A stretch of DNA of 57,240 nt from a virus (taxonomy: Duplodnaviria > Caudoviricetes). Location: the IMG/VR virus record IMGVR_UViG_3300013126_000037, positions 1 through 57,240 of that record; one strand, 5' to 3'. The translations under genes and the position numbers were made by a program. Position 1 is the stretch's first letter. Each line of letters opens with the position of its first letter. This document shows positions 19,901-43,902 of the stretch, in pieces. The notes beneath the pieces were generated by a model. It made no database searches. It worked only from the letters and a program-made list of their open reading frames with translations, and was not told the DNA's origin.

Positions 19901-22514
19901 CAAAGCACTAGAAGTCTATGCACTTACTGAACACCCATCATTTAAATCGTGGGCAACTGGCACAATGCTTGACAACTTGGAGTCCAGATCTTCTGGTACA
20001 GGACTAACGACAAGCCCACAGGTTAAACCCGAGCAATATAAAGCCCTTCGAGTGTTTGACGCTATGAAACTTAGACAAACATTGAAGTATCAAATGACCG
20101 ACCCAACCGAAGAAAATTATCAAACAGCAAAGCAATTGTATGGTGAAACACTAGGGTCACATTTGAACGATGCTCAACTAGACAAGTCGTTTGACAAGTT
20201 GACCAACAAGGGTGACGACGTTGCTCCAATATTGATGGAAGTAGATCGATACATTGATCAGTTCATGACAGAAGATATTGCCAAAATGACTAAGGTTTAC
20301 GACAGCCAATTACAGTCAGAGCAAAAAATAATTACTGGCGCACCATTTACCACATTGGCATTTGGTCCAGACGTCGATGGCGTGTTGTACGACACAATGC
20401 CTGGTATTCAAGTTCACGACCTTGTAACCGGGAACCATGTAAGAAAAAACCGAATGCAACAACCACGGTTTATTAAAATGGAGAACCCATTGGTTATTGA
20501 TGCTGGTAACACGGGTGTAAGCGTACCAATGCGCAACGATGCAATTAAAGATGCTGTTAAGGGCAAGCATGATGGCGTTGTATTTACTAACGTCGTTCAA
20601 TCAGCAATGAGTACTGAAACAACGGCAGTGGCATATACGCTTAACGATGCTAACGTTCGTGCTGCATCTAATATGCTTGGCGAGGCTAAAGATACTGAAA
20701 CCAAACCGTCAGCAAAAACAATAGAGGAATACACCGCAGATATTCCATTAAGCACTGAAGCTGCACCGATGGCTACACCAATTATGTATCAAGGCAAAGA
20801 GAATGCACCGCCTTTAGCAATATCCGTAGGTCAAGTCAAAGCCAATAAAACAATGGGTATGCAAGCATTAGACGGGCTTGACAGGCTTGAGCGTGAATGG
20901 CAGGGTTTTACTCGACTTAGCCTTGCAATGGACTTAGCGTATCCTGTCATCCAAGGTGGCAAGTATGCAATGGGAATATTTACGGGTAGGCCTTACGACA
21001 CAGTCATTTGGCTGAATGCATTCAAAAGTGCCTCTAAGGGACTAGCACCCAGGCTTGCGTTTACAGGTGAAAAAGGCAAGCAGCTTGGAGCGCACATGGG
21101 TCGCCGCGAATACATAAAGTTGTTTTTGGAAATCAGCAATGATCCGTTTTATGAGGTCATGAAAGAACTTGGTGTGCCATTAAACTTTTATAACTATGAG
21201 CGTGCAATACACAAAGCCAGACAACGTACATACCAAGAAGGTAAAGGCAAAGTTGCTTGGCAAGATGTGTATGTTGACTTAATGCAAATCAGTGAGGTTG
21301 GACACGTACAACAAGATATGGTCAAGGATGCAATGGTTAATAAATTACCAGTTGCTGGAATGGCTGAACGGTTTACGTCACTCAATCACGACATATTAAT
21401 GTTCAACTTGGTTAAATGGCAGCTGCAAAATAATCCGTTGTTAAAAGACGTTCCACTCAAAGACATTAAGTATCAACGATCCGCTAAGGAAGTTGCGAAC
21501 TTTGTTGCACTTAGCCTTGGTGACTTCCAATATTCAACCAATGAGGACATTGACATAATTGTTGGACGCGCCGCTAAATGGGTGTCCGTTGCACCACGTT
21601 GGCAACTAGCAAACTGGCTAATGAAACCACATTGGAACTACCTATTTGGCAACATGAAAATAACACGCAAGTTGCTTGGTGACAAAAACCGTGTGTTCAA
21701 TGCGGTTGCATCTAATCAGACTAACCCAGCGTTACGTAATTACCAATACAGCGTAATATACGGATCGATGATATTTGTTGCCGCTATGCAAGCGGCTGTT
21801 CATTATCTTGGTCAGTTGTTGTTTAAACGTGAGGATGTAAAAGCCGACCCAACAAAAATAGGTAAATTTAGAGTAGGCGATTGGGTTTATGCTGATAGCA
21901 GTGGCGTGTGGGATGACATCAATAAAATACGAACGGTTTACGATGCAATCAATAAACCAATCAAACAAGAAGAACGATTTGGTGACACTCCAGAATTAGA
22001 CTGGTTAGTTGGTGCTAGTAACCGCCTTGGTTACAACGTCAGTCCTGCAATTATCAAGATGATATTTGAACCATTGTCTGGCAAAGATGTTATTGGTCGA
22101 TCTGTTTACGAAACCGACGAGGAGTGGCGATATCTGTACGATAAAAAGATTAAACCGTCTGTTGCTTTTGCTCCTGAAAAATGGAACATGTCGCAATACA
22201 TAACATCGACATTCCCTACAGGTTTAAACGAAGTTGTAGACACAACATATGAAACAAGACACGAAAACAAGTCAGTTCAAGAAGCAGCTGTTTTGACTCA
22301 AGCAATAGCAAGTACTCTTGGTTCAAGATTGCAGTACGACAAGTACATTCCAGGGCGAATGATGAAACGCGAAAGAATTATTCGACAACATCAACGTAAC
22401 TGGCAAAATGCACCAAACGTATTAGATGTAATGTCTAAAGCAAACAAGAGTAATTCAAACATACTTGATAAGAGTATTGGGATAGTAAAAAAGACTACCA
22501 CTGGTAAGTACTAA
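7989..22514 (+). CDS. Giant (4841 aa) internal virion/ejection protein of polyvalent type
   Basis: Uninterrupted 14.5-kb ORF, last gene of the virion operon. Contains HELHH (HExxH) plus a downstream EEE, ART-PolyVal-like motifs (PSFKSW; FIKMENPLVID; GKHDGVVF) and a C-terminal 'SP...IFEPLSGKDVIGRSV' pattern like LPD38-type tails. Confidence 0.75.
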   Translation: MENQRLKQIVKDLGLTPDAKASRKKIESIATDQFVMSNEFRALLGGAKDSPAEFTALTGLTAKDTTALQNLRNSVSTRVRKTSPQKLGYGGVLMPSVEEAQASRQQAKRYGAAGIAAEQKIKSRGLFEQIPAYVQGFAGGAAADMAASKLKARGYDPALAYIQAGSETDYAKQLGAETGFTASKTFPSTAASVPTMGVGGAVGDVVTGALTSGITSVSPAWMRAIAGGVRFGGHLYGAIQGGHIGSTLAEKAQEALTSGNLTPEERGIGQSMFGEQTPGGKLGSTAATLSLFKPTIKLAGAPLRKLLPAVFQDYGSVARNPYMMASVKDLGTRGYFVAQAGQSVDQGNEAAIQQATKTLGYKPTDVEQLRPFGYKTQVEKLAEMGMMALLGGTTRLGSALGSLGHIDTTPRPKFNVNDIAQQVQDVRNKRTAEGNQEPVTPASGVATAGSFPRFETVEGGVPITVEERSGTDVGVSPTRKENFEVIQKFNATFGRNANKDVAFTPTSEGAQKLISMNADNDYNVLHRNADGTTEIRSYGWTELPQELKEQASRFFGTTTFIDRTTPAQEPFKYDPATTSEEAPGRDRRTYNTENDLRGVPVKDRAGNWKPDIYKLRKDGVDIPVRAVSDVDTRNDSVGVKTFSGNYYRVPISSLRDSANKPITRVKISAWPEQAYRKSYRPNDVVGDAVRFAESDWRISPDDREKVTAGDEESWKDSYDVDALEAEYSGAAERIEELQQIERGTVFADRYSGDRVVLLKHVDQTVEGRRMVGMLVYDVDSRVYEPYVMSYADATDVSEAVKIKESLKKTTEVEDGKVDNTDEGEDTGPEDGEGPGDGTDEGEGEGPEDEAGEGEGPGDGKVEGEDAESEDDAGEGPGSGADDIEPPRIASRGDSAVDFVKSQIVRYLKQKTNATRPTVTQEELESQDFIPQTLTQLKRFKDTGVRQGVNREIVDQAYSELEEDGIIVAPSPDGFDRDIARGANFDTAVEKLKFGVKTPRDASLSFGDKFGSKEIEPEENLPQRTQSSVGSATGEREEDYEWYRQTEGEELRTTASVTQEEIKSILKAYSPLESRPRVINVEHEFSASDGSKIVALLEAEGVSNEQDVVRVIQQRWNATEQQAKAIGRYVDAWATGWSMTVARMEGVNLNKRLMAVKTDAEKANDQLAFVKKGVVEQLKNSGVVLTPTRVAEIANEAIKNDGKVNVDGKQYNIPVIQEFKNFDQWKKDFREISIFNNTNANRQLLSDLKQVYYEQHLGSFMQLTAGAGRLFRPGTASYAHVSNAVKVLMNGTTAYAGRLIAVESTATLETMLHELHHALLESMPRAVYHEVLRHRFPSLAMVELKYGDNKGFLTTEQRKGVWINTSFEEEMVAALTNAVFTTDVNGYQFRYEFGNNAYEVHVAQAVVELGEFIRTQNAIVNELQANSADPSRTQWVMGNFYGRGDALDAKDMAGNVFNFEYTRGTTVTLTDNVTGSQRQGKVFEILGNERSPGIKRKLANIRITIKFNDGQQQTVPVLDVLNKSDVKTLKDQDTFDMSGIDLNTLADKSKYQIQRFGRINPQLEKAGDTVARIFGHYQKFVNQQIKDVAPLIPSSLSSEPQTDVFAQATPNKGYAYSAGYRWYVNAKTAAAEYGQTGRPQKGYYEGNMSDSRLAKRMRDSYLGWLDVGGYSSWAQTIGGDPTSSHELYRQTGPIPTGMSYDTMRLIYESANTKEQAWYANRGVSNVEAGTGESAETGITKVEGGEVDAGGGPAFELDFDVMSSPSAPSESQSETDINVDEGLKVDTEDINKYGSASERRFISRDTLTSKLASEDKVIAEAIMLKLTEGNDAAEIYNEKTKRTVGFYLAEYDAAGKESLIRRIARLFDAASTNGNGDDVALDYLASIKSDSAKVDAITTHIVDLLTDTNKRRADQNARFSAITRSRQEIARQSALNTIAGDIYNTLKAGIERKVSDSVMATVVDGEVNNAGLTFEQKQSALEDAKPDVIESLKSQYDGVLDEALITKMVDQSIERLLAAHIPTDAEANSAQELRQYEEEQLKLQLAIDRADNSGEQADFFKKQLNSVLEQSMSNKAKAASDAGLWRRVIANNIFGAYINNWVMKGFRMRVPEAMYLRYPLAKNTRVLDYLAGSFDVGKIRSGLSIADANLNKWGDMISGIPFITNTQYRQVEVLRTQWRQIMRNVYKAEFAKKDLSPAREITELNKLMDVFRDEYKIDERSNVKSGEVIEKNKDLILRILSKTNDPELKQRFLDWVYEYNKLASSSTYFDNVLQDLAEPKEKRKGYSTLRVESQQYDDLLNGKKVVYYVSNWGTLRESLAHVKAQQATIERTLDSWNPFGPKSTEFRYEFVQVVNTEVLKEVRNFILNTRQVTEGGVRYYIYDSYNEKQGLTPSDKLTFDEYTSVVMKLMRSTARNAVGQFFAQIDPTATIAPDITVKIKRAENDLDNDIAWKNTQPTASQHAEEALRRHTIYSMAAGIKNRGVYADQSARMIESAMQASRAVGNEPGKPWNTVEFNGVKYKTEESFNNAISAYDATGHAYIDVVDAVNDAIRIKKSGALESDAYGFTDLSLEQLDELASMAKGAERDQQGFDDFREYIEKTAYTRNVPGLLFRASMHERQSAYQPSVWSVGPDSKRTLRMLGIDVNDVEAQVKSNRALLERKRRQNSIARTVSNEINKDDESFTIEQGFTFDYLESMDADRADRVEFFNLFNTINASNSGILTKEFSESFIRDLSNRPFVMKIGVEKATSAADYLTFNQTIEAINRLSSEIGDYKQMLKINPGDKDITERMNQAVQDRVELNKRYRESFDKFEKQNDPMFRLIGKKIDALTLLAENFADGLGLKGNARLEKIGELTGVLYDLAVDLQGAKQNVDMKESERRRFFIANLLRNSGARNARTLFMASTFAGYSESVIVRGTLDRSFPPDTTLREALNETLKDSGLTLDELVIGLAFTSEKITSEVQSIISEPGEYEAFIKRVAANRDLWNGTKEKKGYLDQPVSDIQANKELLKVMNNEIRTTEFLINKIVENYRKPANAATDMSMLYEQLAKSVTPLEDMVLEMKRQHVLKNGMTAQESFSTAVMNATQRGTGEVQSAIKSALKRQSDVENAQMQTHMDEARLNQDGHYNLVARGMQRVLKDIERMEDAFSFLSKDKKSIPVDTSQVNAQLKQHGDYVSFIVLDEHVKGATSQSWLSLRGQRILVPSSFYNATTGRVTFKSNHSFLPNNLTPMEKQAYILTSWFVENNAVDGLPIGRALSENVRNLFSRAISDFDTSKQAERQFKATVLHYTNDVLNSLVMRFPLRNENLRYTNTGTITIKDQVPSDVPKKIQSWLANNDVNWFRYSTKARNFNFEQLLTRLRADGIEVSYLSNKDLWALTEKQGAASNRYSVWKELVDARDKYIVDPLKSRLESSSKLMSQMSLHELNMELRDSGWTNTDRAAFFADYWHITQTRQGNIPRDYMIATGEFPTREAIRQYVDKTMQGKSEDERLLAYTEQVKNLDALEQMIATAGYEATVKTSSITQAEVRYNNDPNSSYVLTGIMRDVQADALDGEQQQVRETLLSQTELLTGNAKSVMSDLLTQVGELKTEAKSLMTEFLNNPEKLNIKNITDILITGSQPAGARNIKVPSLKGKTTELESETRRMAVHVEVSATNNLKTLQENLKDGPLSLEISRNLAELGVNVGRGRVKIQDLITGHSSFVPTRTMTTAQQQQVQLISSKVKAYVQAQARVLIGARLELLRSMNDFAYVGYEYRQNGPSVDVYEQGVKKYTIDYKNGKVSTINHEEILAIGSKTSPSEWSSVLNGLDEGFQNQVKTLDIAQLKQLDLMITIAKRPGEAYIGGSIETHADAVKTLIESIRTNAKAVPAVYWHGIAKMQRPEEPGAEMYTQPAMSPARVDMEYGTIDPSTRRTFVNPVIDKWLHSSTGQPQRVVLNHNNEVGRDEYGYTVYREDGNRSHIYRNLVESGLSRNKALEVYALTEHPSFKSWATGTMLDNLESRSSGTGLTTSPQVKPEQYKALRVFDAMKLRQTLKYQMTDPTEENYQTAKQLYGETLGSHLNDAQLDKSFDKLTNKGDDVAPILMEVDRYIDQFMTEDIAKMTKVYDSQLQSEQKIITGAPFTTLAFGPDVDGVLYDTMPGIQVHDLVTGNHVRKNRMQQPRFIKMENPLVIDAGNTGVSVPMRNDAIKDAVKGKHDGVVFTNVVQSAMSTETTAVAYTLNDANVRAASNMLGEAKDTETKPSAKTIEEYTADIPLSTEAAPMATPIMYQGKENAPPLAISVGQVKANKTMGMQALDGLDRLEREWQGFTRLSLAMDLAYPVIQGGKYAMGIFTGRPYDTVIWLNAFKSASKGLAPRLAFTGEKGKQLGAHMGRREYIKLFLEISNDPFYEVMKELGVPLNFYNYERAIHKARQRTYQEGKGKVAWQDVYVDLMQISEVGHVQQDMVKDAMVNKLPVAGMAERFTSLNHDILMFNLVKWQLQNNPLLKDVPLKDIKYQRSAKEVANFVALSLGDFQYSTNEDIDIIVGRAAKWVSVAPRWQLANWLMKPHWNYLFGNMKITRKLLGDKNRVFNAVASNQTNPALRNYQYSVIYGSMIFVAAMQAAVHYLGQLLFKREDVKADPTKIGKFRVGDWVYADSSGVWDDINKIRTVYDAINKPIKQEERFGDTPELDWLVGASNRLGYNVSPAIIKMIFEPLSGKDVIGRSVYETDEEWRYLYDKKIKPSVAFAPEKWNMSQYITSTFPTGLNEVVDTTYETRHENKSVQEAAVLTQAIASTLGSRLQYDKYIPGRMMKRERIIRQHQRNWQNAPNVLDVMSKANKSNSNILDKSIGIVKKTTTGKY
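10440..10635 (+). repeat. Low-complexity acidic GEGEGP(E/G)D linker repeats within the giant protein
   Basis: Recurrent GAAGGTGAA / GAAGGCCC units encoding G/E/D/P. Confidence 0.8.
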
Positions 22515-24983: not shown

Positions 24984-25808
24984 TTATCCTTCACCAAACA
25001 ATTTGTCCAGAGTTGTAAACACCCTGTTTGCCTGACGCATATTTGTTTCCACGACAGAAACATCAGTTGGTTCTGCTGTAGCCCAATGTTTCCATAGAGC
25101 GTGCAAAGTAACCATGTGTGCCTTCTGCCATTTACCAATCAGGCACTTTGTCCTGGCAGCCAACTCATCGGGAGACACTCCGTGATGAACCATCTGCCTC
25201 AAAACAATATGCACTCCCTGCCATTCACCAATGGTGAACAATGACGCTCTGGCTTCCGACATAAACGATGTTCGATAGGCGATAAACAATGCCTTTGCGG
25301 GATCTTCGTCAGTTGGAAGTTTGATTGTCCGTTTGCGTGTCCCCCGTTGGGGGACTATAGGGGGTATATATTCTTCTTTATGTATATTCTTCAATGTAAT
25401 GGGGGTGTTGATTTCTGCACCCTCCCCCCTGTTGATTTCTGCACCCTCCCCCTCTGTTGCTGCACTAAAACCATCAGGCAAGATGATGTAGCCATTGCTT
25501 GTCTGCCTTCCGCACATCGCATGTCTTGTGTCTACACGAAGCACGGTATAAGCCCGTGTGGTGACCGTAGAGAGACTTTTGATGCACTGACTGACTAATC
25601 TGCTACTCATGCCAGTTTCGTTGGCTATGGTGGCAATTGAAGGGCAACTGAACCCCGTCTCGTCAGCGTGTAATGACAAGCATGTCAGCACCATCCATTC
25701 GCTCGGTGTAAAGTCCTTCAGACAAGTAAGGAGTTCGTGATGTAGCACCACGAACCCCTTGCTTAACCGCTTCTTGTTGATTGAACTACCCTGAAACAAC
25801 CCAATCAT
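24984..25808 (-). CDS. Replication initiator (N-terminal winged HTH, lambda O-like architecture)
   Basis: 'L..HAD..G.SCPSIATIA.ETGMS.R.V...IK.L' HTH_36-like motif, 'SNGY.I', internal iteron repeats, upstream of loader and dnaB. Confidence 0.85.
   Translation of the reverse strand: MIGLFQGSSINKKRLSKGFVVLHHELLTCLKDFTPSEWMVLTCLSLHADETGFSCPSIATIANETGMSSRLVSQCIKSLSTVTTRAYTVLRVDTRHAMCGRQTSNGYIILPDGFSAATEGEGAEINRGEGAEINTPITLKNIHKEEYIPPIVPQRGTRKRTIKLPTDEDPAKALFIAYRTSFMSEARASLFTIGEWQGVHIVLRQMVHHGVSPDELAARTKCLIGKWQKAHMVTLHALWKHWATAEPTDVSVVETNMRQANRVFTTLDKLFGEG
25407..25465. repeat. Iteron-like 24-bp tandem repeats (putative replication origin)
   Basis: GTTGATTTCTGCACCCTCCCCC at 25407 and 25431, partial GTTGCTGCAC at 25456, next to an AT-rich patch at 25365-25400 inside the initiator gene. 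Confidence 0.75.
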
Positions 25809-26921: not shown

Positions 26922-27544
26922 TACAGATTCACCTCCGGTATTAACATAGTCTCGGGTGCGTCTTCCATGAACAAGTCGGCCTCTGCTTCAGCAGCATCTG
27001 CGTAACTGGCAAGTACTTGGGCTGCGGCAGCAAGTGATTCGGCGTTAGGTTTACTTGTTGGCCATGCTCTAGTGAATATGGCTTTACATTCATCAGTGGA
27101 GATGCTGACTCCCCATATACGGCGGCACTGCTGAACGTATGGGTTTGGAGCCTTCTGTACGGTAGGTTGTGCTTCTATAACTAATGCTCCAGGTATTGGT
27201 GCGTCAACAATACGCTCGCCTTCATCGAGTTCGTCGAGAGCATATTGAGTGCCATAGCCAGCCATCAGTAGCGCACGCCCGACTGCTCCGGTGAGAGATT
27301 TCTCTTCAAAATCAGGAAAGTGCGCGCGATGCTCACGCTTGTGTCCAGTTGCAACCACTCGCCCTTGTGGGTCGGTGATTGATGCACGGGACAAGCACGA
27401 TACCTCGTCAGTGTCAACTATCTCAGCGTTGATGCCCCAGCCATCCGATACGGGATGCTCTTCCCTAAAAAGAGCAATCCTGACGTAAACGGGGGCGTAT
27501 AATTTGCCCCCTTTCATTTTGACCAAGTGGTCTTCAATTCTCAT
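26921..27544 (-). CDS. Putative single-strand annealing recombinase (Rad52/Sak-like fold)
   Basis: 'LY.PV..R...FREEHP', 'A.I.D..GRV.ATGH', 'EK..T.AVGRAL...GYG' pattern; recombination-module context. Confidence 0.6.
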   Translation of the reverse strand: MRIEDHLVKMKGGKLYAPVYVRIALFREEHPVSDGWGINAEIVDTDEVSCLSRASITDPQGRVVATGHKREHRAHFPDFEEKSLTGAVGRALLMAGYGTQYALDELDEGERIVDAPIPGALVIEAQPTVQKAPNPYVQQCRRIWGVSISTDECKAIFTRAWPTSKPNAESLAAAAQVLASYADAAEAEADLFMEDAPETMLIPEVNL

Positions 27545-28220
27545 TGTTGTTCTCCTCTGCCTTGTTGATAAATTCCTCTTCTGGGTCTATGCCATCTTCA
27601 GGATAAGTGTTCTTTACTAGGTCAACTAAAAACGCCGTGTTCTTCATCATTGCCCGAGCAACGTTATGCACACTGCCTCGGTACATGACAGATTGCTCGT
27701 TGTTAGCAAAATGTAGAAGAGGCATAGCAATAATGTTAGTGTTGAGTTCTGCAATGAGCGTGACATCAAAGTTGTCGAGTTGCACGATAAGGTCTGCGGG
27801 TGTTGCTCCAATCACAATGCCACCATTGCGTTCAATGTATGCACCGTCAGACATAATGGCGTATGCCCATGTGTATGGGTCGCATACAAGTGATGCGTCA
27901 TCAGCAGGTGCTTCAGTCAGCCCTGTGGCTTGCCAAGTCAGCCCACCCTTAATGAGTATGATTTCGCCATTGTAAATGGCCATGCGCCAATCAACCGCAA
28001 GAGTGTGCCATGTGGTGACCCCAGCCGTGTAGGACTCGTCGGAAAATGTCCTGGCAAGATCGATGATTTCATCAGGTGTGTCAGCCAAGACAATGGCTCT
28101 GTGGTTAACAGTTTCAATAGCCAGGACGCTGTTGTTGCTAGTGGCAGCGTAATAGACCAACTCGCGATGGTCGTGTGGGACGACGTAGTTATAGTTTGCA
28201 GGAAACTTCATTCTTAGCAA
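27534..28220 (-). CDS. Hypothetical protein
   Basis: 228-aa ORF overlapping both neighbours in the operon. Confidence 0.65.
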   Translation of the reverse strand: MLRMKFPANYNYVVPHDHRELVYYAATSNNSVLAIETVNHRAIVLADTPDEIIDLARTFSDESYTAGVTTWHTLAVDWRMAIYNGEIILIKGGLTWQATGLTEAPADDASLVCDPYTWAYAIMSDGAYIERNGGIVIGATPADLIVQLDNFDVTLIAELNTNIIAMPLLHFANNEQSVMYRGSVHNVARAMMKNTAFLVDLVKNTYPEDGIDPEEEFINKAEENNNEN

Positions 28221-29347: not shown

Positions 29348-29730
29348 TCGCCAGCAAGAAACGAGTCGACGAGTTCAGCTGCGGGCATAACTATCAAGTT
29401 GCGTCCAGGATACTTAGTGTGTGCCACCTGGGCGTGAACAATGACGGGTCCAGCCTGTTCCGTGAGTTCGCCTTCGACCAGGACAATGTGCTGGCTGTTA
29501 ATCAGTGATTGAGGATTTACACCTGATAAAGACTCAGGTACATCAAATGTCACAATGGACAAGTCCCATTCAGGCCAATTGAGCGTGCATTTAAATGACG
29601 AATTATCATCCCGATGAGTCCAAATGAAAGGTGATACCTTTTGCCACCTTTGTTGCAACTCTGGTTCAGCAGCTGCAGCCCATTCATTCATAAGCAGATG
29701 AACAATTGCATCTGCATCATTACGTTTCAT
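29281..29730 (-). CDS. Hypothetical protein
   Basis: 149-aa ORF, ATGA-coupled to the small upstream ORF. Confidence 0.6.
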   Translation of the reverse strand: MKRNDADAIVHLLMNEWAAAAEPELQQRWQKVSPFIWTHRDDNSSFKCTLNWPEWDLSIVTFDVPESLSGVNPQSLINSQHIVLVEGELTEQAGPVIVHAQVAHTKYPGRNLIVMPAAELVDSFLAGEWTPWWTCRCCHQRKQMKVLPL

Positions 29731-29831
29731 TTCAATACCCTCGCAGCAATCACAATAAACTCAACCAATCCGCGTACTACGTGATAGACGGTCACTAATA
29801 CGCCCGATAAAAAGAAGAGGATGATCAGCAT
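29727..29831 (-). CDS. Small membrane peptide (34 aa, MLIILFFLSGVLVTVYHVVRGLVEFIVIAARVLK)
   Basis: Read manually (below the track cutoff); stop overlaps the next start (ATGA); GGTGA RBS-like sequence upstream. Confidence 0.45.
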   Translation of the reverse strand: MLIILFFLSGVLVTVYHVVRGLVEFIVIAARVLK

Positions 29832-29992
29832 AGATGTCACCCCGTAAAACAAATGCAACAAAGATTTACTCCTTCAATAAATAACTTGCATCCAACCCAA
29901 TATAAACTTGCACTTAACCACAAAGCACAGTTATTTGCCAACCATAATCAGAGCAATACCTGCGTGTGTGTGTAATGGTTTTGCCGTCAGGC

Positions 29993-30021
29993 AAAAAAAT
30001 AGCCGACCCGAAGGTCGGCTA
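29993..30021 (-). terminator. Intrinsic terminator (part of truncated repeat R0)
   Basis: TAGCCGACC-TTCG-GGTCGGCTA followed by T7 on the minus strand. Confidence 0.9.
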
Positions 30022-30026
30022 AGTAA

Positions 30027-30254
30027 TTACCACTGCTTCTCCCATTCTTCGTAGTGGTTCCAGCCAGCATCTGTGATTAGCCAGTAGGTGCAACCCCGCT
30101 CATCAGCACCCTGTGGCGCTACAAAACCTTTCTCAACCAAGACTGCCATTTCGTCTGCAAACTCCGTCTCCGGAATCATGCAGAACCTATGACCCGTACG
30201 CTTGGCAACATATACATGATGCAACAAGTGCGACTCTCTGTATTTTAGATACAT
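30027..30254 (-). CDS. Hypothetical protein (possible winged-helix fragment)
   Basis: RBS GAAAGG; 'LVEKGFV......YWLITDAG' resembles a wHTH wing. Confidence 0.6.
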   Translation of the reverse strand: MYLKYRESHLLHHVYVAKRTGHRFCMIPETEFADEMAVLVEKGFVAPQGADERGCTYWLITDAGWNHYEEWEKQW

Positions 30255-30266
30255 TTATTGACCTTT

Positions 30267-30902
30267 CTACGAGAGCATCCCTGCCACCGTTGTGAGCAGT
30301 ACACGTGTTGGACTGCCAATCATCGTGTACGTGTGGCGAGATGTCTCACCAATCTTGACGCTGACACAGGTGAAATACGTGTCATCGTCAGGACGGCGGA
30401 ACTGCACATGAACAGCGCCCCTCGAACTGTTGGACGAGAGTTCGATGATTTCGACATCGCCCTTGTCATCGGAAAGGCGATTGTGCGTAATCTGCATCGA
30501 CTTACGTACAAAGACGTTGTCGAACTTTGCGACTGCATCCAGCACGTCCAACGTGCACAACCGATGTTGGTCACTGAGAGCTTGAAGCACTTCGTGGATG
30601 CCCGCTGCGTCCGTCTTGACGTACCAGTGAAAGAACTGGCACATCTCAGGGTGCGACTGAATCAGCGATGGTTGCTGATACAACTCGGCAGAAACAGGGG
30701 TGTTTCCATTCTCTGATAATCCGTCCAGGCTGAAGACTTCCAACTTTACGATGTGAAACTTGGACGCTTCATTGACGAGTGCGTCAGCCAGTTTGCGGTG
30801 TGGGAAGAAGGCGTTGCCATCGCAGACATAGATGTCCACGTCTGCCCACTCGTTCGACTCTTCATTGACAACATGCGTAACACGCAAATAAATCTTGTTC
30901 AT
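30267..30902 (-). CDS. Hypothetical protein
   Basis: Start moved to ATG 30902 (RBS GAGGAGG, 5-nt spacer). Confidence 0.7.
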   Translation of the reverse strand: MNKIYLRVTHVVNEESNEWADVDIYVCDGNAFFPHRKLADALVNEASKFHIVKLEVFSLDGLSENGNTPVSAELYQQPSLIQSHPEMCQFFHWYVKTDAAGIHEVLQALSDQHRLCTLDVLDAVAKFDNVFVRKSMQITHNRLSDDKGDVEIIELSSNSSRGAVHVQFRRPDDDTYFTCVSVKIGETSRHTYTMIGSPTRVLLTTVAGMLS

Positions 30903-30914
30903 ACAAACCTCCTC

Positions 30915-30942
30915 GCTGGTGATTCGCCCCACCAGCAGGGCG
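30915..30942 (-). ncRNA. Predicted H-type pseudoknot in mRNA leader (copy 1)
   Basis: CGCCC-U-GCUGGUG-GGGCG-AAU-CACCAGC directly before GAGGAGG; second copy shows compensatory changes. Confidence 0.7.
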
Positions 30943-30950
30943 CTCAAACA

Positions 30951-31241
30951 TTACGATACGACTTCCCACCCCATCTGTTCGAGGGCGGTATCACCCTTGA
31001 GCAGTGGAACATTGCCTTTTTCACGAGCATGCCACAAAGCAACGTTGACCTGCATCAACTGCCCGTTGATTGGACGTGTCAGGTAAACCTGATCGCCTTC
31101 AGTGTGCGTTGTCGCAGCGATTGACTGTGCTTCAACGTCCCACACCGCCGCCTGCTCCATTCGGCAAGCGGAATCAATCGCACGTGCCAGATTGACGAAA
31201 ACGATTGCCCGTTGATTCGGGGCTTTGACTACAAAACTCAT
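30951..31241 (-). CDS. Hypothetical protein
   Basis: ATGA coupling to the upstream gene. Confidence 0.65.
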   Translation of the reverse strand: MSFVVKAPNQRAIVFVNLARAIDSACRMEQAAVWDVEAQSIAATTHTEGDQVYLTRPINGQLMQVNVALWHAREKGNVPLLKGDTALEQMGWEVVS

Positions 31242-31456
31242 TGGTCACCATCCTTCACCTGAAGCGTCACGCCGTCGACCTTGTATGCATCATGCATGTT
31301 GGACGCAAAGGTCATCGCTTGGTCAAGCGTATCGAACTGATGTGTGGTGTTACTCAACAGGTTGTTCTGTCCGTTGTCGTATCGCACGTAGCGATAGACG
31401 TGGACAGTCTTGGCGCCCTTGTCGAGCGTAATCGTGCCATCGTAATGGGCTTTCAT
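31238..31456 (-). CDS. Hypothetical protein (72 aa, MKAHYDG...)
   Basis: Start at the ATGA overlap with the upstream stop. Confidence 0.65.
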   Translation of the reverse strand: MKAHYDGTITLDKGAKTVHVYRYVRYDNGQNNLLSNTTHQFDTLDQAMTFASNMHDAYKVDGVTLQVKDGDQ

Positions 31457-31788
31457 CTGTTTCTCTCTGCCTCCTTGTTCTCTGCAACATGGTCGAGGTA
31501 TTGAAACCATTTCTCCTCTTCCCATGCTTCGTTGGCTTCGTTGTCATCTCGCAGACTGTATGTCGGTGCAACGCCGTTAACGAAGTCTTCATCAAACGTT
31601 TGCCCGCAACGGTCGCACATTGGCTCCAACCCAAACTCGACAATCTCACCCTTGGTGAGTCTGAAGTCCGAGCTGGGCGCCAAGTCTGGACAGCAGTCCA
31701 AACACATGAACTGTTCGCCGATTGCGGAACCAACCACGCCAAACAATATGGCGTGGTCATCCTTCACATCCCAAAGTTTACTAGTCAA
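31453..31788 (-). CDS. Acidic CxxC...CxxC zinc-finger-like protein
   Basis: CLDC...CDRC; RBS GGAGG. Confidence 0.65.
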   Translation of the reverse strand: MTSKLWDVKDDHAILFGVVGSAIGEQFMCLDCCPDLAPSSDFRLTKGEIVEFGLEPMCDRCGQTFDEDFVNGVAPTYSLRDDNEANEAWEEEKWFQYLDHVAENKEAERNR

Positions 31789-32398
31789 GAGGAACCTCCT
31801 TGTTGAGAATGACGGCGTGTACTTGTTCCACCGTCAATGGTTTGATTTTGTAGTTGAGTTCAGGGTCATCACTGCGGCAGTCGCATGCCCCACCGCAACA
31901 TGCACAACTCTCACGTTTCTGACACCAGCACTGACGGCAGTCAGACAACCGACTCTCAATGTGCGATGGATACTTGATGTAATTAAGCACTGGTACGCCG
32001 TTGAGAGCAACCGTCAGTTCAAACTCAAAGCGAAGCACCTCATGCTTGACCGTGATGTACACGTGAGCAAAAGATGCTTGTGTTGTGAGTTCTAACCACT
32101 TGTTCCAGTTGCCAACCATGTGTACGTTGACAGTGATGTCGTTTGGATACGCATTACAGATGCTCACCAACAGGTTGGATGGCGTGACCGTGCCGGGGAA
32201 GTTATGCCCGACATTGCCACAGACCACACTAGTCTCACACTTGTATGGGTTGCCCCATGCGACAGCGTGAAACAACTCAGGAGTCACAAGCAGTTCTGTA
32301 CCAGCACCACACGCCCACGTAGTGGACGGGTGCGTGATGATTTTCTGCACAAGAGACTGAACATCAGACTCATGATAATGACTAAAACGAGAATCCAT
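31781..32398 (-). CDS. Hypothetical protein with Cys-rich C-terminus
   Basis: Start at ATG 32398 (RBS GAGGAGG); 'CRQCWC....CACCGGACDC'. Confidence 0.65.
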   Translation of the reverse strand: MDSRFSHYHESDVQSLVQKIITHPSTTWACGAGTELLVTPELFHAVAWGNPYKCETSVVCGNVGHNFPGTVTPSNLLVSICNAYPNDITVNVHMVGNWNKWLELTTQASFAHVYITVKHEVLRFEFELTVALNGVPVLNYIKYPSHIESRLSDCRQCWCQKRESCACCGGACDCRSDDPELNYKIKPLTVEQVHAVILNKEVPLD

Positions 32399-32410
32399 AC
32401 AAACCTCCTC

Positions 32411-32438
32411 GCCTGTGTTTCGCCCCACAGGCAGGGCG
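32411..32438 (-). ncRNA. Predicted H-type pseudoknot in mRNA leader (copy 2)
   Basis: CGCCC-U-GCCUGUG-GGGCG-AAA-CACAGGC directly before GAGGAGG. Confidence 0.7.
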
Positions 32439-32448
32439 CTGGAAAAAA

Positions 32449-32808
32449 CTAAAGAGTCTTGGCTTCCAAGTCCATGTCAATGAACTCGTCCCAAAACCAC
32501 TGCACACGCCACTTCAAACCGTGTGCGTCCCATTCGACCCGCCAGCACGTCTCAGGGTCATCGGTGTAGTTGATGCGTGTAATGGTGAACTTAGCACCCT
32601 CACCGACACGGCGAACAATGTTCACAATGTCGTAGTGCATCACAGCAGTCATGTCCATCACAATGACTTGCGTCTTCGGTGTCTTACGCACCGCCATCAG
32701 CCAATAACCTTCCGCATGGGTAGGGGCGTTGTGAATCAGCAGATTCGTCATCGCCCTCCCACCCTTGATAGGCACAACACTCATTCTCTCGAGTTTATAG
32801 ATGCTCAT
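32449..32808 (-). CDS. Hypothetical protein
   Basis: RBS GGAGGTGA; ATGA overlap with the upstream gene. Confidence 0.65.
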   Translation of the reverse strand: MSIYKLERMSVVPIKGGRAMTNLLIHNAPTHAEGYWLMAVRKTPKTQVIVMDMTAVMHYDIVNIVRRVGEGAKFTITRINYTDDPETCWRVEWDAHGLKWRVQWFWDEFIDMDLEAKTL

Positions 32809-33257
32809 GGAATCACCTCCAGTTCCATCATCAACAAACGGTCATCGAACTCACCAAGCAGTTCCCCAAGGTTCCACAGAAACCAAGTGAACGCATAGTC
32901 GTAATCCTCGCCGAGGTTCTCAGGCACGCCGTGACCATGCACATAGTCAAACACGTCAGAGATGACAACGTCATAACCAATCGTGTCAGCAAGCGTGCGA
33001 ACATACTCACCAAACGCCATGCAGCGGGGCATCGTTGTCAAGGCGCCATCCTCTGCTTCCTCCTCGGTCACTTCATTGTAGTGATGCTCGAGCAAGTCCA
33101 CTGCAACATCACCGTCAACACCCCACTTCGACAAACCAAACCACAACGCCTTGTGAAAGACAGGAGCGTCAGATGCAAACAACGAACGAACATACGACTG
33201 CAAACGCAGTCCTTCAGCGACCAACATTGGCTTATCGCCATTCAGATAATCAGACAT
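32805..33257 (-). CDS. Acidic hypothetical protein
   Basis: Start moved to ATG 33257 (RBS GAAAGGTGA); D/E-rich. Confidence 0.65.
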   Translation of the reverse strand: MSDYLNGDKPMLVAEGLRLQSYVRSLFASDAPVFHKALWFGLSKWGVDGDVAVDLLEHHYNEVTEEEAEDGALTTMPRCMAFGEYVRTLADTIGYDVVISDVFDYVHGHGVPENLGEDYDYAFTWFLWNLGELLGEFDDRLLMMELEVIP

Positions 33258-33465
33258 AAATGTCACCTTTCGTAGAAACAATCCAAACAAGACAAACCCC
33301 AACAATACACACCAATACACATATCACTCACAACAGATACATCCGTGACAAACAAAGATGACCGCTAGGGCATTTTTCTTGACGAATCAAGGCTAAAACC
33401 CAAGATTTGGTACATCTATACGGGAACTCTTGTAGAGTCTGTGTATGGGCTTCCTACGTGCCTAC

Positions 33466-33560
33466 GGAGGCATGCAGAAATCGACCCCCTCCGTGTCGCT
33501 AAGTCACGGGGAGGGTGCAGAATCTGCACCGCAGGTATTGGGGAGGGTGCAGAATCTGCA
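33466..33560 (+). repeat. Intergenic copies of the initiator-gene iteron
   Basis: GGGGAGGGTGCAGAATCTGCA at 33508 and 33540; degenerate GGAGGCATGCAGAAATCGAC at 33466; the 15-mer core is the exact reverse complement of the 25407/25431 repeats. Confidence 0.8.
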
Positions 33561-33562
33561 TC

Positions 33563-33783
33563 CCACAGTAAAAGTACAAGTCGTGGCACGCCACTAACTC
33601 AAACGGAACGGTACTTGCGGGGATGATATAGATTGTGCGGGCAATCAATTTTCAAATACTTGCGTGGTGTATGTGTGCTACCGCCAAGCCCTGGCAATCC
33701 AAACCAGAGCAGTACTAGCGGGTTGTGTGTGTGGTCTCGATTTCGAGACAAAAAAAGGGCGGGGAGCCGAAGCCCCCCCACCC
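33563..33783 (-). promoter_or_regulatory. Cassette repeat R1 (terminator + hairpin + three boxes + degenerate -10 block)
   Basis: Boxes TACTTGCG 33612, TACTTGCG 33657, TACTAGCG 33713; CCAC..GTAC block 49 bp before box 1; TTCG-loop terminator with T7. Confidence 0.75.
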
Positions 33784-33786
33784 TGT

Positions 33787-34272
33787 TTAGTTGTCCGCCC
33801 AGTGAGCGATGAGAACATCAAGAGCGTTCTTGAGTTCTGCTCGAACAATGACCTTGATGTCATCGTTGGATGGGACGTTCTCCCTGACCGACTCGTCAAT
33901 GAGTTCGGCAAGTTGGGACTTGAACGCCCACGAATCGCAGTAGCGTTCTACAGCTGCGTCAACGTCAATGTCTGGCTCGTCCGTGTCCTCCAAATCGCTG
34001 ACACGGCTTTCGATGTCGTCAACCTTGCTGTCAAGGTCGGAGATGTCCGACTCAGCCTCGCCGATACGCTCAACGAGTTTGCACTCGTTGTTGTCGGTAG
34101 CGACAACGTGGTCTACGAACTCCCGGCGAATCTCTTCCTTGAAAGGGTCGATTGAAGCGTCGATGATTTGCTGGATGTCTTCGACTCGTGTGCCAGTTGG
34201 AGTCAGTTCGACTTTCATGGCTCCGATGAGTTCGATGACGAGGTCTGCGATGCGTTTGGACTGATTGTCCAT
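33787..34272 (-). CDS. Acidic coiled-coil protein (cassette cargo)
   Basis: Heptads ISDLDSK-VDDIESR-VSDLED; RBS GGGAGA; sits between R2 and R1. Confidence 0.75.
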   Translation of the reverse strand: MDNQSKRIADLVIELIGAMKVELTPTGTRVEDIQQIIDASIDPFKEEIRREFVDHVVATDNNECKLVERIGEAESDISDLDSKVDDIESRVSDLEDTDEPDIDVDAAVERYCDSWAFKSQLAELIDESVRENVPSNDDIKVIVRAELKNALDVLIAHWADN

Positions 34273-34326
34273 GGTGGTTCTCCCACACGTCCTAAGTGAT
34301 GCAGTCGATGTACGCTACACCCTTGA

Positions 34327-34488
34327 ACACTATATAAGTACAGATGCAGTAGGATGCCTAACTGTAGCCAACCCATACCTGCGTGGTTTATGTAGATTGT
34401 GGCGGTTGCTTAATTTCCCAATACTAGCGTGGTGTGCTTGTGGTTTTTGCCAACGGCAAAAAAAGGGAGGGGGCTTTCGCCCCATCCC
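34327..34488 (-). promoter_or_regulatory. Cassette repeat R2
   Basis: ACAC 34327, boxes 34376 and 34422, GAAA-loop terminator. Confidence 0.85.
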
Positions 34489-34489
34489 A

Positions 34490-35296
34490 TCAACCCATCG
34501 GGAGAGTCACCCACTTTTCCGATGGACCGTGTGCCCGGATTGCAACGTTGCGGGTTCCGTCGCATTTCAGGCATCGTTCGCACGGTATCAGTTCCATGCG
34601 TCCCTTGAACTGCGGGTCGGACACACACGACGTGGTGCGCGTCAATGACCGAAACAGTTCTTTGTAGTTGTCATGCGGAAGCACAGTGAATGTGCCCCAC
34701 CCGGCATGCACAGCACGGTAATGGTCATCGGGTGAATCACACGAAGCCATCACGGTACCACGAAGCCATTCGCCATGCTTCGCATTCCACTGGTGAGTGT
34801 ACCCAGTACGCCCTTTCGCATACGGTAGTATGCATTCCCACACGTGCTGTGGGATAGCCGCTGGGTCACCATAGGCACCCATGCGTAATGGGCGACCCGT
34901 CGCCGCTATCGCACGTTGCACAGTGTGAACATCTGGCATGGGAACATTACCGCGTTCCCATGCACGCCAGATTGTCAAAGGACCCTGCCCGACATTTACG
35001 TAACAGGTCCTCATTACTTTGACTTTGCCCTTTGCATTGCGGCGTTCCTGCATCATGTGTGGGCATCGATTCTTTCCGATACCGCAGATGCTACCGTCCA
35101 ATCCAAGCTTTATCGCTTGAACTGGGTCAATATCCAAACGCATGATATACGTTTGAATCATTGCACCAGTCTTGCGATTACGGGAAAGATTGGACAATCC
35201 CGAAACAAACAATCCAATGGGGGCGCCATCGATTGCAGACGGTCCTGCCCACAGCAGGAACGTGTTATGACGTGAAATACCGTGTTTTGTAAACAT
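34490..35296 (-). CDS. Conserved-looking Cys-motif phage protein, possibly metal/Fe-S binding (cassette cargo)
   Basis: Start at ATG 35296 (RBS GAAAGG); motifs NRKTG.M.Q, SICG...CPH, CYV, R.G.YGDP, TGYTHQW, MASCD, C..C..C, AHG. Confidence 0.7.
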   Translation of the reverse strand: MFTKHGISRHNTFLLWAGPSAIDGAPIGLFVSGLSNLSRNRKTGAMIQTYIMRLDIDPVQAIKLGLDGSICGIGKNRCPHMMQERRNAKGKVKVMRTCYVNVGQGPLTIWRAWERGNVPMPDVHTVQRAIAATGRPLRMGAYGDPAAIPQHVWECILPYAKGRTGYTHQWNAKHGEWLRGTVMASCDSPDDHYRAVHAGWGTFTVLPHDNYKELFRSLTRTTSCVSDPQFKGRMELIPCERCLKCDGTRNVAIRAHGPSEKWVTLPMG

Positions 35297-39036: not shown

Positions 39037-39138
39037 CCCCCTGCCTCCTCCTACCCCCTCCCCCTCCCCCGTACACCAATACACCCCCTATATGGCAAGC
39101 CCCCTACCCCATGTAATCCATTAATCCTCCCCGCCCCC
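39037..39138. other. C-run tract (G-runs on minus strand) at the divergence point of the two genome arms
   Basis: Nine runs of 4-5 C in about 100 bp of non-coding DNA. Confidence 0.7.
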
Positions 39139-39248: not shown

Positions 39249-39488
39249 ATGAAGAAAGTTGATTTACGGTCGGAGTACGACCAGATTCTTAGTGATATGC
39301 TGCTGATGCAGTATCGGGTTGAGGTTTTTCGTCGTCGTATGCAGGTTGAGCATAGTGTTAGTTGCAGTCAGGTGAGTTTGGCTATTGACGAGTCTGTTGA
39401 AGAGTTGACTGACCTTGGGACTAGACTTTGTTTGGCTCCTGTAGTGAAGAAGTCGTGGTGGGAAATTGAGTTTAAGCAACGCTCGTAG
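39249..39488 (+). CDS. Hypothetical protein
   Basis: RBS GGAGG; first gene after the promoter. Confidence 0.7.
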   Translation: MKKVDLRSEYDQILSDMLLMQYRVEVFRRRMQVEHSVSCSQVSLAIDESVEELTDLGTRLCLAPVVKKSWWEIEFKQRS

Positions 39489-40688: not shown

Positions 40689-42239
40689 GTGAGGTATTTG
40701 AGTGTTTGTTCAGGAGTTGAAGCTGCTAGTTTGGGGTGGCATGATTTAGGTTGGACACCTGTAGGGTTTGCGGAAATTGAGCCGTATCCATCAAGGGTAC
40801 TTGCGGATAGATTCCCTCATGTAAAGAACTATGGGGACATGACCCGTTATAAGGAATGGGATATTGACAGAACATCAATTGACATTATTGTCGGAGGAAC
40901 CCCCTGCCAAGCCTTCAGCGTTGCGGGAATGCGAAAAGGAATGGAAGACCCTAGGGGAAATCTCGCCTTGGTCTTTATTGGTATGGTTGATTTCTTTAGA
41001 CCCGAATGGGTTGTCTGGGAAAACGTACCCGGTTGCCTTAGTGTCAACGGAGGAAGGGACTTTGGCTCCATCCTCGGGGCGTTTTCAGAGCTCGGGTATG
41101 GGTGGTCCTATCGGATCTTGGACGCTCAGTACTTCGGCGTGCCCCAAAGACGCCAAAGAGTCTTTCTTGTCGGACATTCTTCAGGAGATCCACGACGTTC
41201 CGGAAAAGTACTATTTGAGTCCGACTGCGTGCGAAGGCATTCTCAGGAGAGCCGAAAAACGAGGAAAGTCACTCCCACCGCTACTACGACAGGCACTGTT
41301 AGCAGTAAGTGGGCGAAAGGAGCAGGAGGACCAGCAGGAGACGAAGCCTACAACTTAGTCACGGTAATGTATGAAAACCATCCTAATGACAGCCGGGTCA
41401 CTGGACCTGTTGATGAATCACCTACAGTCGCAGCTCGGTGGGGTACAGGTGGAGGTAATACTCCACTTGTACAGCATGCATATCGCAAGTCGAGGCGCGC
41501 TCAGAGCACTGAAGACCATGAGACGTGGGTCGAAGACGAGGTCGCAAACACGTTAAACACGTTTGACGTTGGCGATATTCGCAGTACTAACTTGGCTGTG
41601 CAACCTATTGCTCTTGCTGAAAACACAATAGGTCGACAGCCAACTAACGGAGGTAATGGAAACGGGTTTACGGTTGGTGGACCAATGTATACACTCAATG
41701 CAACAGGCGTGCATGGTGTAGCCCAAGCGTTCACGGCCGCCCAGGTACGTCGAAGCGGTACGGTGCAACTGAGCGACATATCGCCAACGCTAACATCGCA
41801 AAACAAGCAAGGTGACACAGCACCATTGGTATTCGCATTTGAGCCAGGATCGATAGCTCGCAACGCTGGTCCAACGGGCATGGATACTGTATGCTCTACT
41901 CTTCGAGCAGACATGGGTGACAATCAACCCGCAGTACTTTCGGTTGAGCCAAGCACATTCAAAGTGCGTGGTGGATGCGACGGTGGAGGTAAAGGTTATC
42001 TTGGACAAACGGAAAAGGCATTTACTGTGTCAACTACACAGGATCAATATCTGTCACTGAACATGGTAGTGCGTAGGCTCACACCGACCGAATGCGAACG
42101 CTTGCAAGGTATGCCTGACGAGTGGGCTAAGGCTTCAGGTAAAGAGTCAGATTCGGCTCGTTACAAGGCAATAGGTAACAGCATGGCAGTGCCTGTTATG
42201 AAGTGGATTGGTGAAAGGATACAAAAGGAAAGTTTATGA
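40689..42239 (+). CDS. C5 cytosine DNA methyltransferase with a long variable region
   Basis: Motif I SVCSGVEA, IV GGTPCQAFS, VI WENVPG, VIII PQRRQRVF, IX RRLTPTECERLQG, X RYKAIGNS. Confidence 0.95.
   Translation: MRYLSVCSGVEAASLGWHDLGWTPVGFAEIEPYPSRVLADRFPHVKNYGDMTRYKEWDIDRTSIDIIVGGTPCQAFSVAGMRKGMEDPRGNLALVFIGMVDFFRPEWVVWENVPGCLSVNGGRDFGSILGAFSELGYGWSYRILDAQYFGVPQRRQRVFLVGHSSGDPRRSGKVLFESDCVRRHSQESRKTRKVTPTATTTGTVSSKWAKGAGGPAGDEAYNLVTVMYENHPNDSRVTGPVDESPTVAARWGTGGGNTPLVQHAYRKSRRAQSTEDHETWVEDEVANTLNTFDVGDIRSTNLAVQPIALAENTIGRQPTNGGNGNGFTVGGPMYTLNATGVHGVAQAFTAAQVRRSGTVQLSDISPTLTSQNKQGDTAPLVFAFEPGSIARNAGPTGMDTVCSTLRADMGDNQPAVLSVEPSTFKVRGGCDGGGKGYLGQTEKAFTVSTTQDQYLSLNMVVRRLTPTECERLQGMPDEWAKASGKESDSARYKAIGNSMAVPVMKWIGERIQKESL
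40864..41358 (+). CDS. Nested +1-frame ORF in the methyltransferase gene (M.EcoHK31I beta-polypeptide-like)
   Basis: 164-codon open alternative frame, AAGGA RBS before TTG, 'LSDILQ...VP.KYYLSP.AC.GILRRA..RGK.LP..L..AL' motif. Confidence 0.65.
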   Translation: MTEHQLTLLSEEPPAKPSALRECEKEWKTLGEISPWSLLVWLISLDPNGLSGKTYPVALVSTEEGTLAPSSGRFQSSGMGGPIGSWTLSTSACPKDAKESFLSDILQEIHDVPEKYYLSPTACEGILRRAEKRGKSLPPLLRQALLAVSGRKEQEDQQETKPTT

Positions 42240-43599: not shown

Positions 43600-43902
43600 A
43601 TGGCAAGACCACATGTGAAGCGGACAAAGCTGCATCATCTGTGTGACCGGGCCGGCTTGACGCAACGTATGTTCGCCGAGCAGGTAGGTGCAGATGAATC
43701 AACAACATCTCTATGGCTCAGCGGAAAAAGAATGCCTAGTGCAAATGTAGTACCAAAGATTGCAGAAGTACTTGGGATGGAAGCCAACTACTTACTTGGA
43801 CTGTTTGTGGCTATGGAGCTTCGACGGAATTACGGCGACACGGTATGTAGATTCGTCTACACACATCTGAATCAACTATCGGCGGAAGAAGACTATTCAT
43901 AA
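43600..43902 (+). CDS. XRE/Cro-CI family HTH regulator
   Basis: 'GLTQ..FAEQVG.....TS.W.SGKR.P......KIAEVLG'. Confidence 0.9.
   Translation: MARPHVKRTKLHHLCDRAGLTQRMFAEQVGADESTTSLWLSGKRMPSANVVPKIAEVLGMEANYLLGLFVAMELRRNYGDTVCRFVYTHLNQLSAEEDYS

Follow-up and report, generated by a model that had tools for sequence, protein, structure and literature searches.

An RNA element of 28 nt, held directly against the Shine-Dalgarno (SD) sequence of the gene that follows it, occurs twice on the minus strand of the window, by which we mean the whole stretch of 57,240 bases analysed here, an IMG/VR virus record of the Caudoviricetes (IMGVR_UViG_3300013126_000037) with an estimated completeness of 92%. The element is probably a new and portable control signal for protein synthesis, as its core is far better conserved than the unrelated genes behind it. 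It is best read as a cis-acting leader of the ribosome-binding site (RBS), an RNA motif that is itself new but belongs to a general kind already known. The data show a strongly selected sense-strand RNA structure that is fixed against the SD of genes that are themselves exchangeable. Its standing as a candidate RNA motif that is absent from Rfam and occurs in one group of uncultured phages is well supported.

A two-copy element and its family

Read 5' to 3', each window copy runs through CGCCC, a U, a 7-nt arm, GGGCG, AAU or AAA, the complementary 7-nt arm, GAGGAGG, five bases, and ATG. In the terms of a pseudoknot, this gives both copies a first stem (S1) of 5 bp, a loop (L1) of 1 nt, a second stem (S2) of 7 bp, an L2 of 0 nt, and an L3 of 3 nt. 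An earlier note on this DNA had quoted the two 28-nt strings with just this geometry, and reading the sequence finds both, at 30915-30942 and 32411-32438 of the minus strand. Between the two copies, S2 is changed at two neighbouring pairs, each of them compensated (U-A to C-G and G-C to U-A), as the note had also seen. A repeat finder reports the copies as a 45-nt family with 89% identity, 1496 nt apart and separate from a nine-copy family in the window, which agrees with the note's view of them as a second family. The 45 nt take in the SD and the start codon, and the stretch 30900..30914, from start codon to SD, is identical in the second copy. Five differences are present in all; four of these bases make up the two compensated S2 pairs, and the fifth is the third base of L3. 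A pattern with S1 and SD fixed matches twice in the window, where shuffled sequences give an expectation of 0.02 and none of 100 shuffles reaches two. Across both strands of ten related phage genomes, 589 kb in all, the exact 5/1/7/3 geometry turns up nine times, six of these being family members, compared with an average of 0.65 in composition shuffles. The same S1- and SD-fixed pattern, run on IMG/VR and other collections, gave 17 loci that were all rejected as chance matches, with at most 5/7 S2 pairs.

The genes that follow the two copies encode proteins of 211 and 205 amino acids that are unrelated (best BLASTP E 5.0), in line with the earlier note's statement that the element is placed against the RBS of unrelated genes. 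Neither has a PHROG or Pfam family; the 211-aa protein has no relative in seven other element loci, and a peptide-pattern search of IMG/VR found none for the 205-aa protein. The proteins encoded just upstream of the copies are likewise without a PHROG or Pfam family.

Further copies were sought among 60 IMG/VR relatives of the window, collected as loci by their portal protein, and beyond. A covariance model built from three copies matched in 1 of 50 portal-relative records. When neither S1 arm was fixed, a scan returned 22 matches, eight of them family members, all with the loop GGGCG and with 4-5/5 S1 pairs; the other 14 could form only 1-3/5. Additional copies came from further covariance-model, pattern, and protein-based searches, and a metagenome search with the commonest downstream protein family (family A) returned 10 loci, all 10 with the element at the orthologous upstream position. 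The family now stands at 27 copies with 13 distinct cores, drawn from nine IMG/VR phage records and from 10 metagenome contigs, some of which duplicate IMG/VR records. All 27 copies are in the sense orientation and end 0-4 nt before an SD, and a genome carries one to three element-bearing genes. The genes behind them fall into at least seven unrelated ORFan families, none with a Pfam or PHROG family, which bears out the note's portable leader module.

The element is a trait of one clade, since its carriers are the genomes nearest the window and it is absent from more distant relatives. Element-bearing genomes are 82-96% identical to the window in TerL and 45-87% in DnaB, compared with 67-75% and 36-43% for element-free genomes. 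A loose core pattern (GCCY, 7-8 bases, GGGCGAA) is absent from all 49 more distant portal relatives, including four that are at least 90% complete, and its single match in the 50 records is an already known carrier. The search of Rfam and phage contigs that the note had proposed yielded, besides these copies, no match to any of the 4227 Rfam models at the gathering score in the whole window and none at E <=10 in 30850-32500. A blastn search of the 45-nt element against 50,697 GenBank phage records gave only four chance-level matches (E 9), and among the genomes collected here a search with a generic pseudoknot-plus-SD descriptor turned up nothing analogous that had another S1.

Conservation of the core stands out against its surroundings. 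Over the 36 pairs among nine orthologous loci of family A, the 28-nt core has a mean identity of 0.88, compared with 0.52 for the third codon positions of the first 33 codons and 0.54 for the 30 nt upstream of the core, while the proteins behind the element are 25-90% identical. Of the 28 core columns, 17 never vary and a further six reach 90% conservation or more. On these measures, the whole 28-nt unit is shown to be under strong purifying selection. In three related genomes (G053, G055, and G056), the element comes after a conserved gene and is followed by genes that differ. The window and its closest relative (G001) have their flanks in common and the genes between them not, and the element lies inside this variable stretch. 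To judge from these comparisons, the element and its strong SD behave as a portable cassette leader that is passed down within one clade and that recombination puts to use again before new ORFans.

Helix S2, helix S1, and the choice between hairpin and pseudoknot

For the structural comparison 20 copies were aligned, two variants with a 6-bp S2 being left out as MAFFT misaligned both. Three of the seven S2 pairs are changed on both sides in these rows, one G-C pair becomes G.U, and a single cell is C.A; 99.3% of S2 cells are paired, and 98.3% when both helices are taken together. The covariation score of the whole structure exceeds that of 500/500 shuffles and of all slid controls, and RNAalifold returns the S2 helix. 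By this covariation, with three pairs changed on both sides, the formation of the 7-bp S2 helix is proven on comparative grounds and the hairpin is certain. In the two variants set aside, S2 is a different helix of 6 bp, L1 is an A, and the flank, the loop, and the AA are retained. Moreover, 21 cells are G.U or U.G wobbles, which would be A.C mismatches on the opposite strand, and there is one C.A cell; together with an orientation to the gene that is identical in 27/27 copies, these sense-only wobbles identify the fold as an RNA fold.

The same evidence makes it very unlikely that the element works as DNA, either as a recombination linker at mosaic junctions or as a palindromic protein-binding site whose RNA fold is incidental. 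Such a role would suit its position at boundaries where the downstream genes of relatives differ, as well as the variable region between conserved flanks that distinguishes the window from G001, and PeSL cassettes of T4-type phages mediate shuffling of this kind (PMC2839356). However, a palindrome read by a protein is not expected to show, in a single genome, compensatory changes of its two half-sites, the wobble cells pair on the sense strand only, orientation and SD distance are fixed in every copy, and unlike a PeSL the element contains no promoter or terminator. Termination is not indicated in the window copies either, as no U-tract follows S2 there.

The earlier note had staked its fold on S1 being conserved in homologues, and 4-5 of the five S1 pairs are kept in 27/27 copies. 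Within the aligned rows three pairs are invariant and two vary on one side only. The pair adjoining L1 is C-G or U.G, that is, a change from C to U opposite G, and the outermost pair is C-G, U.G, or, in 3/20 rows, A.G. No copy with a variant S1 was present in any sequence collected here. As S1 has no pair changed on both sides, the pseudoknot is not demonstrated, and the note's description of "two covarying pseudoknots" is overstated; S2 does covary, while S1 is complementary throughout and merely consistent with the fold.

We consider it likely that the element folds into a compact, coaxially stacked H-type pseudoknot against the SD, in which the 5' flank (N)GCC(C/U) is paired to the GGGCG of the hairpin loop. 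The 1-nt L1 and a 3-nt L3 of the form AAN would complete a compact knot pressed onto the SD. Conservation on the 5' side starts at the S1 arm, and in the 7-bp form the three inner S1 pairs, the U of L1, and two A's of L3 are invariant while S2 covaries freely. About -11 to -12.7 kcal/mol are calculated for the S2 hairpin, and -5.1 to -8.3 kcal/mol, initiation term included, for the S1 duplex; given the usual pseudoknot penalties, the knot should by our estimate be at least competitive energetically.

Several points weigh against this fold or against the reading of the element that is built on it. Double-sided changes in S1 number zero, and the outer pair is A.G in three of the 20 rows. RNAalifold favours an 8-bp hairpin, in which the presumed L1 U pairs with the purine after S2 in all 20 rows. 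In folding models the knot has no consistent effect on SD accessibility (means 0.41, 0.42, and 0.46). Part of the invariance could also come from recent recombinational spread, as the copies are few and related, with 13 distinct cores. It is conceivable, then, that only the hairpin forms, with an 8-bp stem and a conserved 8-nt loop (GGGCGAAN), that the flank is read single-stranded by a protein or by the ribosome, and that its complementarity to the loop is coincidental. The extended hairpin of the RNAalifold consensus and the behaviour of S1 just described would be expected in that case. We still regard it as fairly unlikely. Flank and loop are complementary in 27/27 copies, the only flank changes adjoining L1 are from C to U opposite G, and by our estimate a conserved 4-mer would agree by chance with any of the five windows of the loop in about 2% of cases. 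The hairpin alone would also forgo an S1 duplex worth -5 to -8 kcal/mol. The third position of L3 is never C (0/27), where a C would compete with S1, although this is compatible with both the hairpin and the knot. Sequestration of the SD by the extended hairpin (CCU with AGG) was seen in the window copies and was dropped as a candidate, not being conserved in relatives.

Possible roles of the leader and the search for a partner

The element would act in cis as an RNA leader on the mRNA. The earlier note had named a nuclease block, a translational enhancer, and a protein-binding operator as its possible roles, and all three are still live options. Tentatively, we place first an operator, in which the folded element may be a sequence-specific recognition site that sets access of the 30S subunit. 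It could be read by a protein, of the phage or of the host, or by the 30S platform itself; once bound, the factor would sit beside the SD, 0-4 nt away, and so control 30S access, and the one to three element-bearing genes of a phage would share translational control. This is favoured over a purely mechanical block because the invariant S1 pairs, L1 U, and L3 A's stand beside an S2 that covaries freely.

Phyletic profiling of five element-bearing against five element-free genomes did not identify a trans-acting factor, which speaks against the operator. The profile holds five protein families that are present in 5/5 element-bearing and 0/5 element-free genomes; these are simply clade-specific, as any clade marker would be. 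One of the five is a 100-aa Cro/C1-type DNA-binding helix-turn-helix protein (43600-43902, plus strand; Pfam HTH_31, E 7e-10). Another of the five, of 228 aa, gave no match in an Atlas search and no informative fold match, with an AlphaFold predicted local distance difference test score (pLDDT) of 67.9 and Foldseek template-modelling (TM) scores of at most 0.28 except for a 90-residue piece. Clade-specific ORFs of the window are present at 27534-28220, 39249-39488, and 5005-5835. The partner suggested in the earlier note, the single-stranded DNA-binding protein (SSB), finds no backing, as no SSB is recognisable in or near the element-bearing operons from the neighbouring genes and their Pfam and PHROG families.

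Alternatively, the element may be an autonomous structural leader with no specific partner, a mechanically stable knot at the SD that insulates the RBS from what lies upstream, raises initiation by stacking on the helix of SD and anti-SD, or blocks 5'-to-3' decay, alone or in combination. The last of these three options would have RNase J or 5'-end-dependent RNase E stopped at the fold, and the downstream cistron would survive. Such a leader is possible, and as no partner protein was found and the contexts are many, it is nearly as likely as the operator. It would fit an element that is present before at least seven unrelated genes, in intercistronic and 5' untranslated region (UTR) settings alike, that is always followed by a strong SD, and that has a compact, GC-rich fold. 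In a leader that is purely structural, however, S1 should covary like S2, yet its three inner pairs are invariant together with the L1 U and the L3 A's. Modelled SD accessibility is not consistently raised, and only one to three genes per genome carry the element, though most would benefit from it.

Other devices that place a fold beside an SD fare worse. The size and SD-adjacent position of the element are typical of translational pseudoknot aptamers, which would make it a small-molecule riboswitch of the compact pseudoknot type. This is highly improbable, as Rfam gives no match even at E 10, an L2 of 0 nt and an L1 of 1 nt would leave little room for a pocket, and no metabolic theme links the downstream genes, which are unrelated ORFans. 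The chances are just as slim for a recoding or termination device of the upstream gene, acting by readthrough, by frameshifting, or by holding the ribosome for re-initiation. The intercistronic copies do have the upstream stop 5-10 nt before S1 (8 and 10 nt in the window), and at copy 1 the 51 nt from that stop to the next ATG keep the frame and contain no further stop in it. At copy 2, however, the 53 nt from stop to ATG put them out of frame, family A copies lie about 60-65 nt after the previous open reading frame (ORF), in an apparent 5' UTR, and no conserved slippery heptamer is present. None of the riboswitch, recoding, terminator, and DNA-palindrome readings agrees with every feature that was tested.

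A wider version of the operator is a small translational regulon of a type not known to have been reported from phages, in which one sequence-specific factor, or the platform of the host 30S subunit, reads the SD-clamped knot, and any ORFan cassette that recombines behind the leader would come under the same control. It is possible, if rather doubtful, that the element works in this way. A bolder variant still would make the knot an exoribonuclease-resistant cap for internal cistrons, the bacterial-virus counterpart of viral exoribonuclease-resistant RNAs (xrRNAs). The element shows how an uncultured phage clade can exchange its accessory ORFans under an expression signal that stays fixed. The motif supplies a clean seed alignment and clear mutational tests. 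If both fold and partner were confirmed, it would be a second, architecturally different case of pseudoknot-based translational control in phages, and it would also offer synthetic biology a ready-made 28-nt portable leader.

Genomic setting and known systems compared

The positions of the two copies and their neighbouring genes are given in Table 1. Both copies look intercistronic, as a consensus scan, which reports consensus matches only, found no sigma-70-like promoter just 5' of either and as terminator-like hairpins bound the unit; we infer that they lie within one early/middle operon of ORFans. The scan lists seven terminator-like sites in 29500-34500, none coinciding with either element. 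Elsewhere in the same arm are genes for a DnaB-like helicase, a replication-initiator-like protein, and a resolvase-like protein. The best GenBank relatives of the portal protein are actinobacterial phages at about 25% identity, and megablast of 30000-33500 against GenBank phages gave no match.

Table 1. Positions of the element copies and adjoining genes in the window
Feature	Position	Strand	Basis or remark
Probable transcription unit with both copies	30000..33784	-	terminator-like hairpins at 33784-33756 and 30021-30000; consensus scan
Copy 1 core, 28 nt	30915..30942	-	sequence read, pattern match, repeat finder, pair counts
Copy 1 S1 5' arm (CGCCC)	30938-30942	-	
Copy 1 L1 (T)	30937	-	
Copy 1 S2 5' arm	30930-30936	-	
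Copy 1 S1 3' arm (GGGCG, hairpin loop)	30925-30929	-	
Copy 1 L3	30922-30924	-	
Copy 1 S2 3' arm	30915-30921	-	
Copy 1 SD (GAGGAGG)	30908-30914	-	followed by 5-nt spacer
Copy 1 ATG	30900-30902	-	
Copy 2 core, 28 nt	32411..32438	-	sequence read, pattern match, repeat finder
Copy 2 S1 5' arm	32434-32438	-	
Copy 2 L1	32433	-	
Copy 2 S2 5' arm	32426-32432	-	
Copy 2 S1 3' arm	32421-32425	-	
Copy 2 L3	32418-32420	-	
Copy 2 S2 3' arm	32411-32417	-	
Copy 2 SD (GAGGAGG)	32404-32410	-	sequence read; followed by spacer
Copy 2 ATG	32396-32398	-	sequence read
Gene after copy 1, 211-aa ORFan (P0001)	30267..30902	-	translation
Gene before copy 1, 96 aa (P0003)	30951..31241	-	TAA stop 8 nt 5' of S1
Gene after copy 2, 205-aa cysteine-rich ORFan (P0002)	31781..32398	-	translation
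Gene before copy 2, 119 aa (P0004)	32449..32808	-	TAG stop 10 nt 5' of S1

Two settings outside the window deserve description. Upstream of the family A gene (L143 9784-9900, minus strand, and the orthologous stretches of L141, L144, L145, and L153) there is a conserved intergenic region with an inverted repeat (TGTCACA, 5 nt, and a TGTG-like half) and, some 17 nt ahead of the element, a TAATAT/TATCAT hexamer. By its sequence the region resembles a promoter with an operator, and the element would head that transcript; the preceding inverted repeat and the -10-like hexamer are the reason for placing the family A element probably at the 5' end of its mRNA. On the minus strand of L142 (8100-8330), L144 (7500-7690), and L153 (16265-16450), the element comes directly after a conserved gene whose product has a hydrophobic C-terminus ending in a motif of the form GYVETQxKP. 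The ORFs behind the element differ among these three genomes, which makes the site a replacement slot with the element as its 5' boundary.

Within the window, nine copies of an intergenic repeat of about 40-130 nt lie between 33597 and 38981 at spacings of 457-1010 nt. Each is paired with a GC-rich hairpin and T-run on the minus strand and sits between short minus-strand ORFs, making the array a series of PeSL-like cassettes of terminator, promoter-like site, and leader. Relatives have a CGCAGGTA-type motif, shared with this array, behind their family A gene. At 25401-25454 and 39037-39066 there are direct repeats rich in C (CCCCCTGTTGATTTCTGCACCCTCCCC-like), which are inside or adjoin the replication-initiator-like gene at 24984-25808 and are possibly origin iterons. 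The plus strand has a 4841-aa ORF (7989-22514) with no Pfam or PHROG family, which has counterparts in 5/5 element-bearing and 0/5 more distant genomes by BLASTP clustering and spans degenerate acidic and glycine-rich tandem repeats at 10448-10633. The plus-strand arm opens with a 516-aa DNA methyltransferase (40689-42239; PHROG 116, E 7e-87).

Nuclear magnetic resonance (NMR) work on the T2 gene 32 pseudoknot reportedly shows a 1-nt loop crossing a 7-bp stem 2, and it was to the T-even gene 32 operator that the earlier note had tied the element. What the two share is a place in a phage mRNA leader and, if the pseudoknot of the element forms as its sequence suggests, an H-type geometry with coaxial stems and a 1-nt loop across a 7-bp stem 2; for the element, S2 is proven and S1 consistent. 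As a T4 review describes it, the gene 32 knot is H-type with two coaxial stems and nucleates cooperative binding of gp32 along an unstructured A+U-rich tract. Between the knot and the start codon, 67 nt further on, comes this tract, which overlaps the RBS, and the SSB gene is all that the operator serves (PMC3014915). The proposed tie does not hold up against this description, as the element touches the SD, the end of S2 lying 0-4 nt before it in 27/27 copies, and has no A+U-rich tract after it and no recognisable SSB nearby. Nor is there sequence or Rfam similarity, and the gene 32 knot is the single autogenous target of an SSB, whereas the element stands in one to three copies per genome before unrelated ORFans. 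The same review considers the gene 32 knot possibly the only viral pseudoknot used in translational autoregulation, and mentions the rpsO knot as a translational-operator pseudoknot (PMC3014915).

A leader pseudoknot that is needed for translation initiation is known from the timP mRNA, where a trans-acting regulator targets this essential structure (PMC11228461). This is a precedent for the operator reading of the element. The timP knot differs in being a long-range contact between stem-loops far upstream of the RBS, at a single chromosomal locus of the enterobacterial timPR type I toxin-antitoxin system, with an antisense small RNA as regulator and no sequence relation to the element. The PeSL of T4-type phages combine a sigma-70-like promoter with a terminator stem-loop and flank ORFans in hyperplastic regions (PMC2839356). 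Like them, the element is a short conserved intergenic module that marks recombination boundaries of ORFans, and it is found at the boundary of exchanged ORFans; unlike them, it is bound to the RBS and contains nothing that resembles a promoter or a terminator. The better analogue in the window is the nine-copy family at 33.6-39.0 kb.

The preQ1-I/II, SAM-II, and guanidine-III riboswitches are compact pseudoknots of similar size that lie beside the SD. The element differs from them in having no Rfam match, in loops that are probably too short for a pocket, and in genes that share no function. The pseudoknot operators of ribosomal proteins, such as that of rpsO for S15, are autogenous and single-copy, include the SD and start codon within the fold, and mimic an rRNA site. 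For the element, whose partner is hypothetical, the likeness to the rpsO/S15 system would lie in a protein-bound pseudoknot within a translational operator that controls the function of the 30S subunit.

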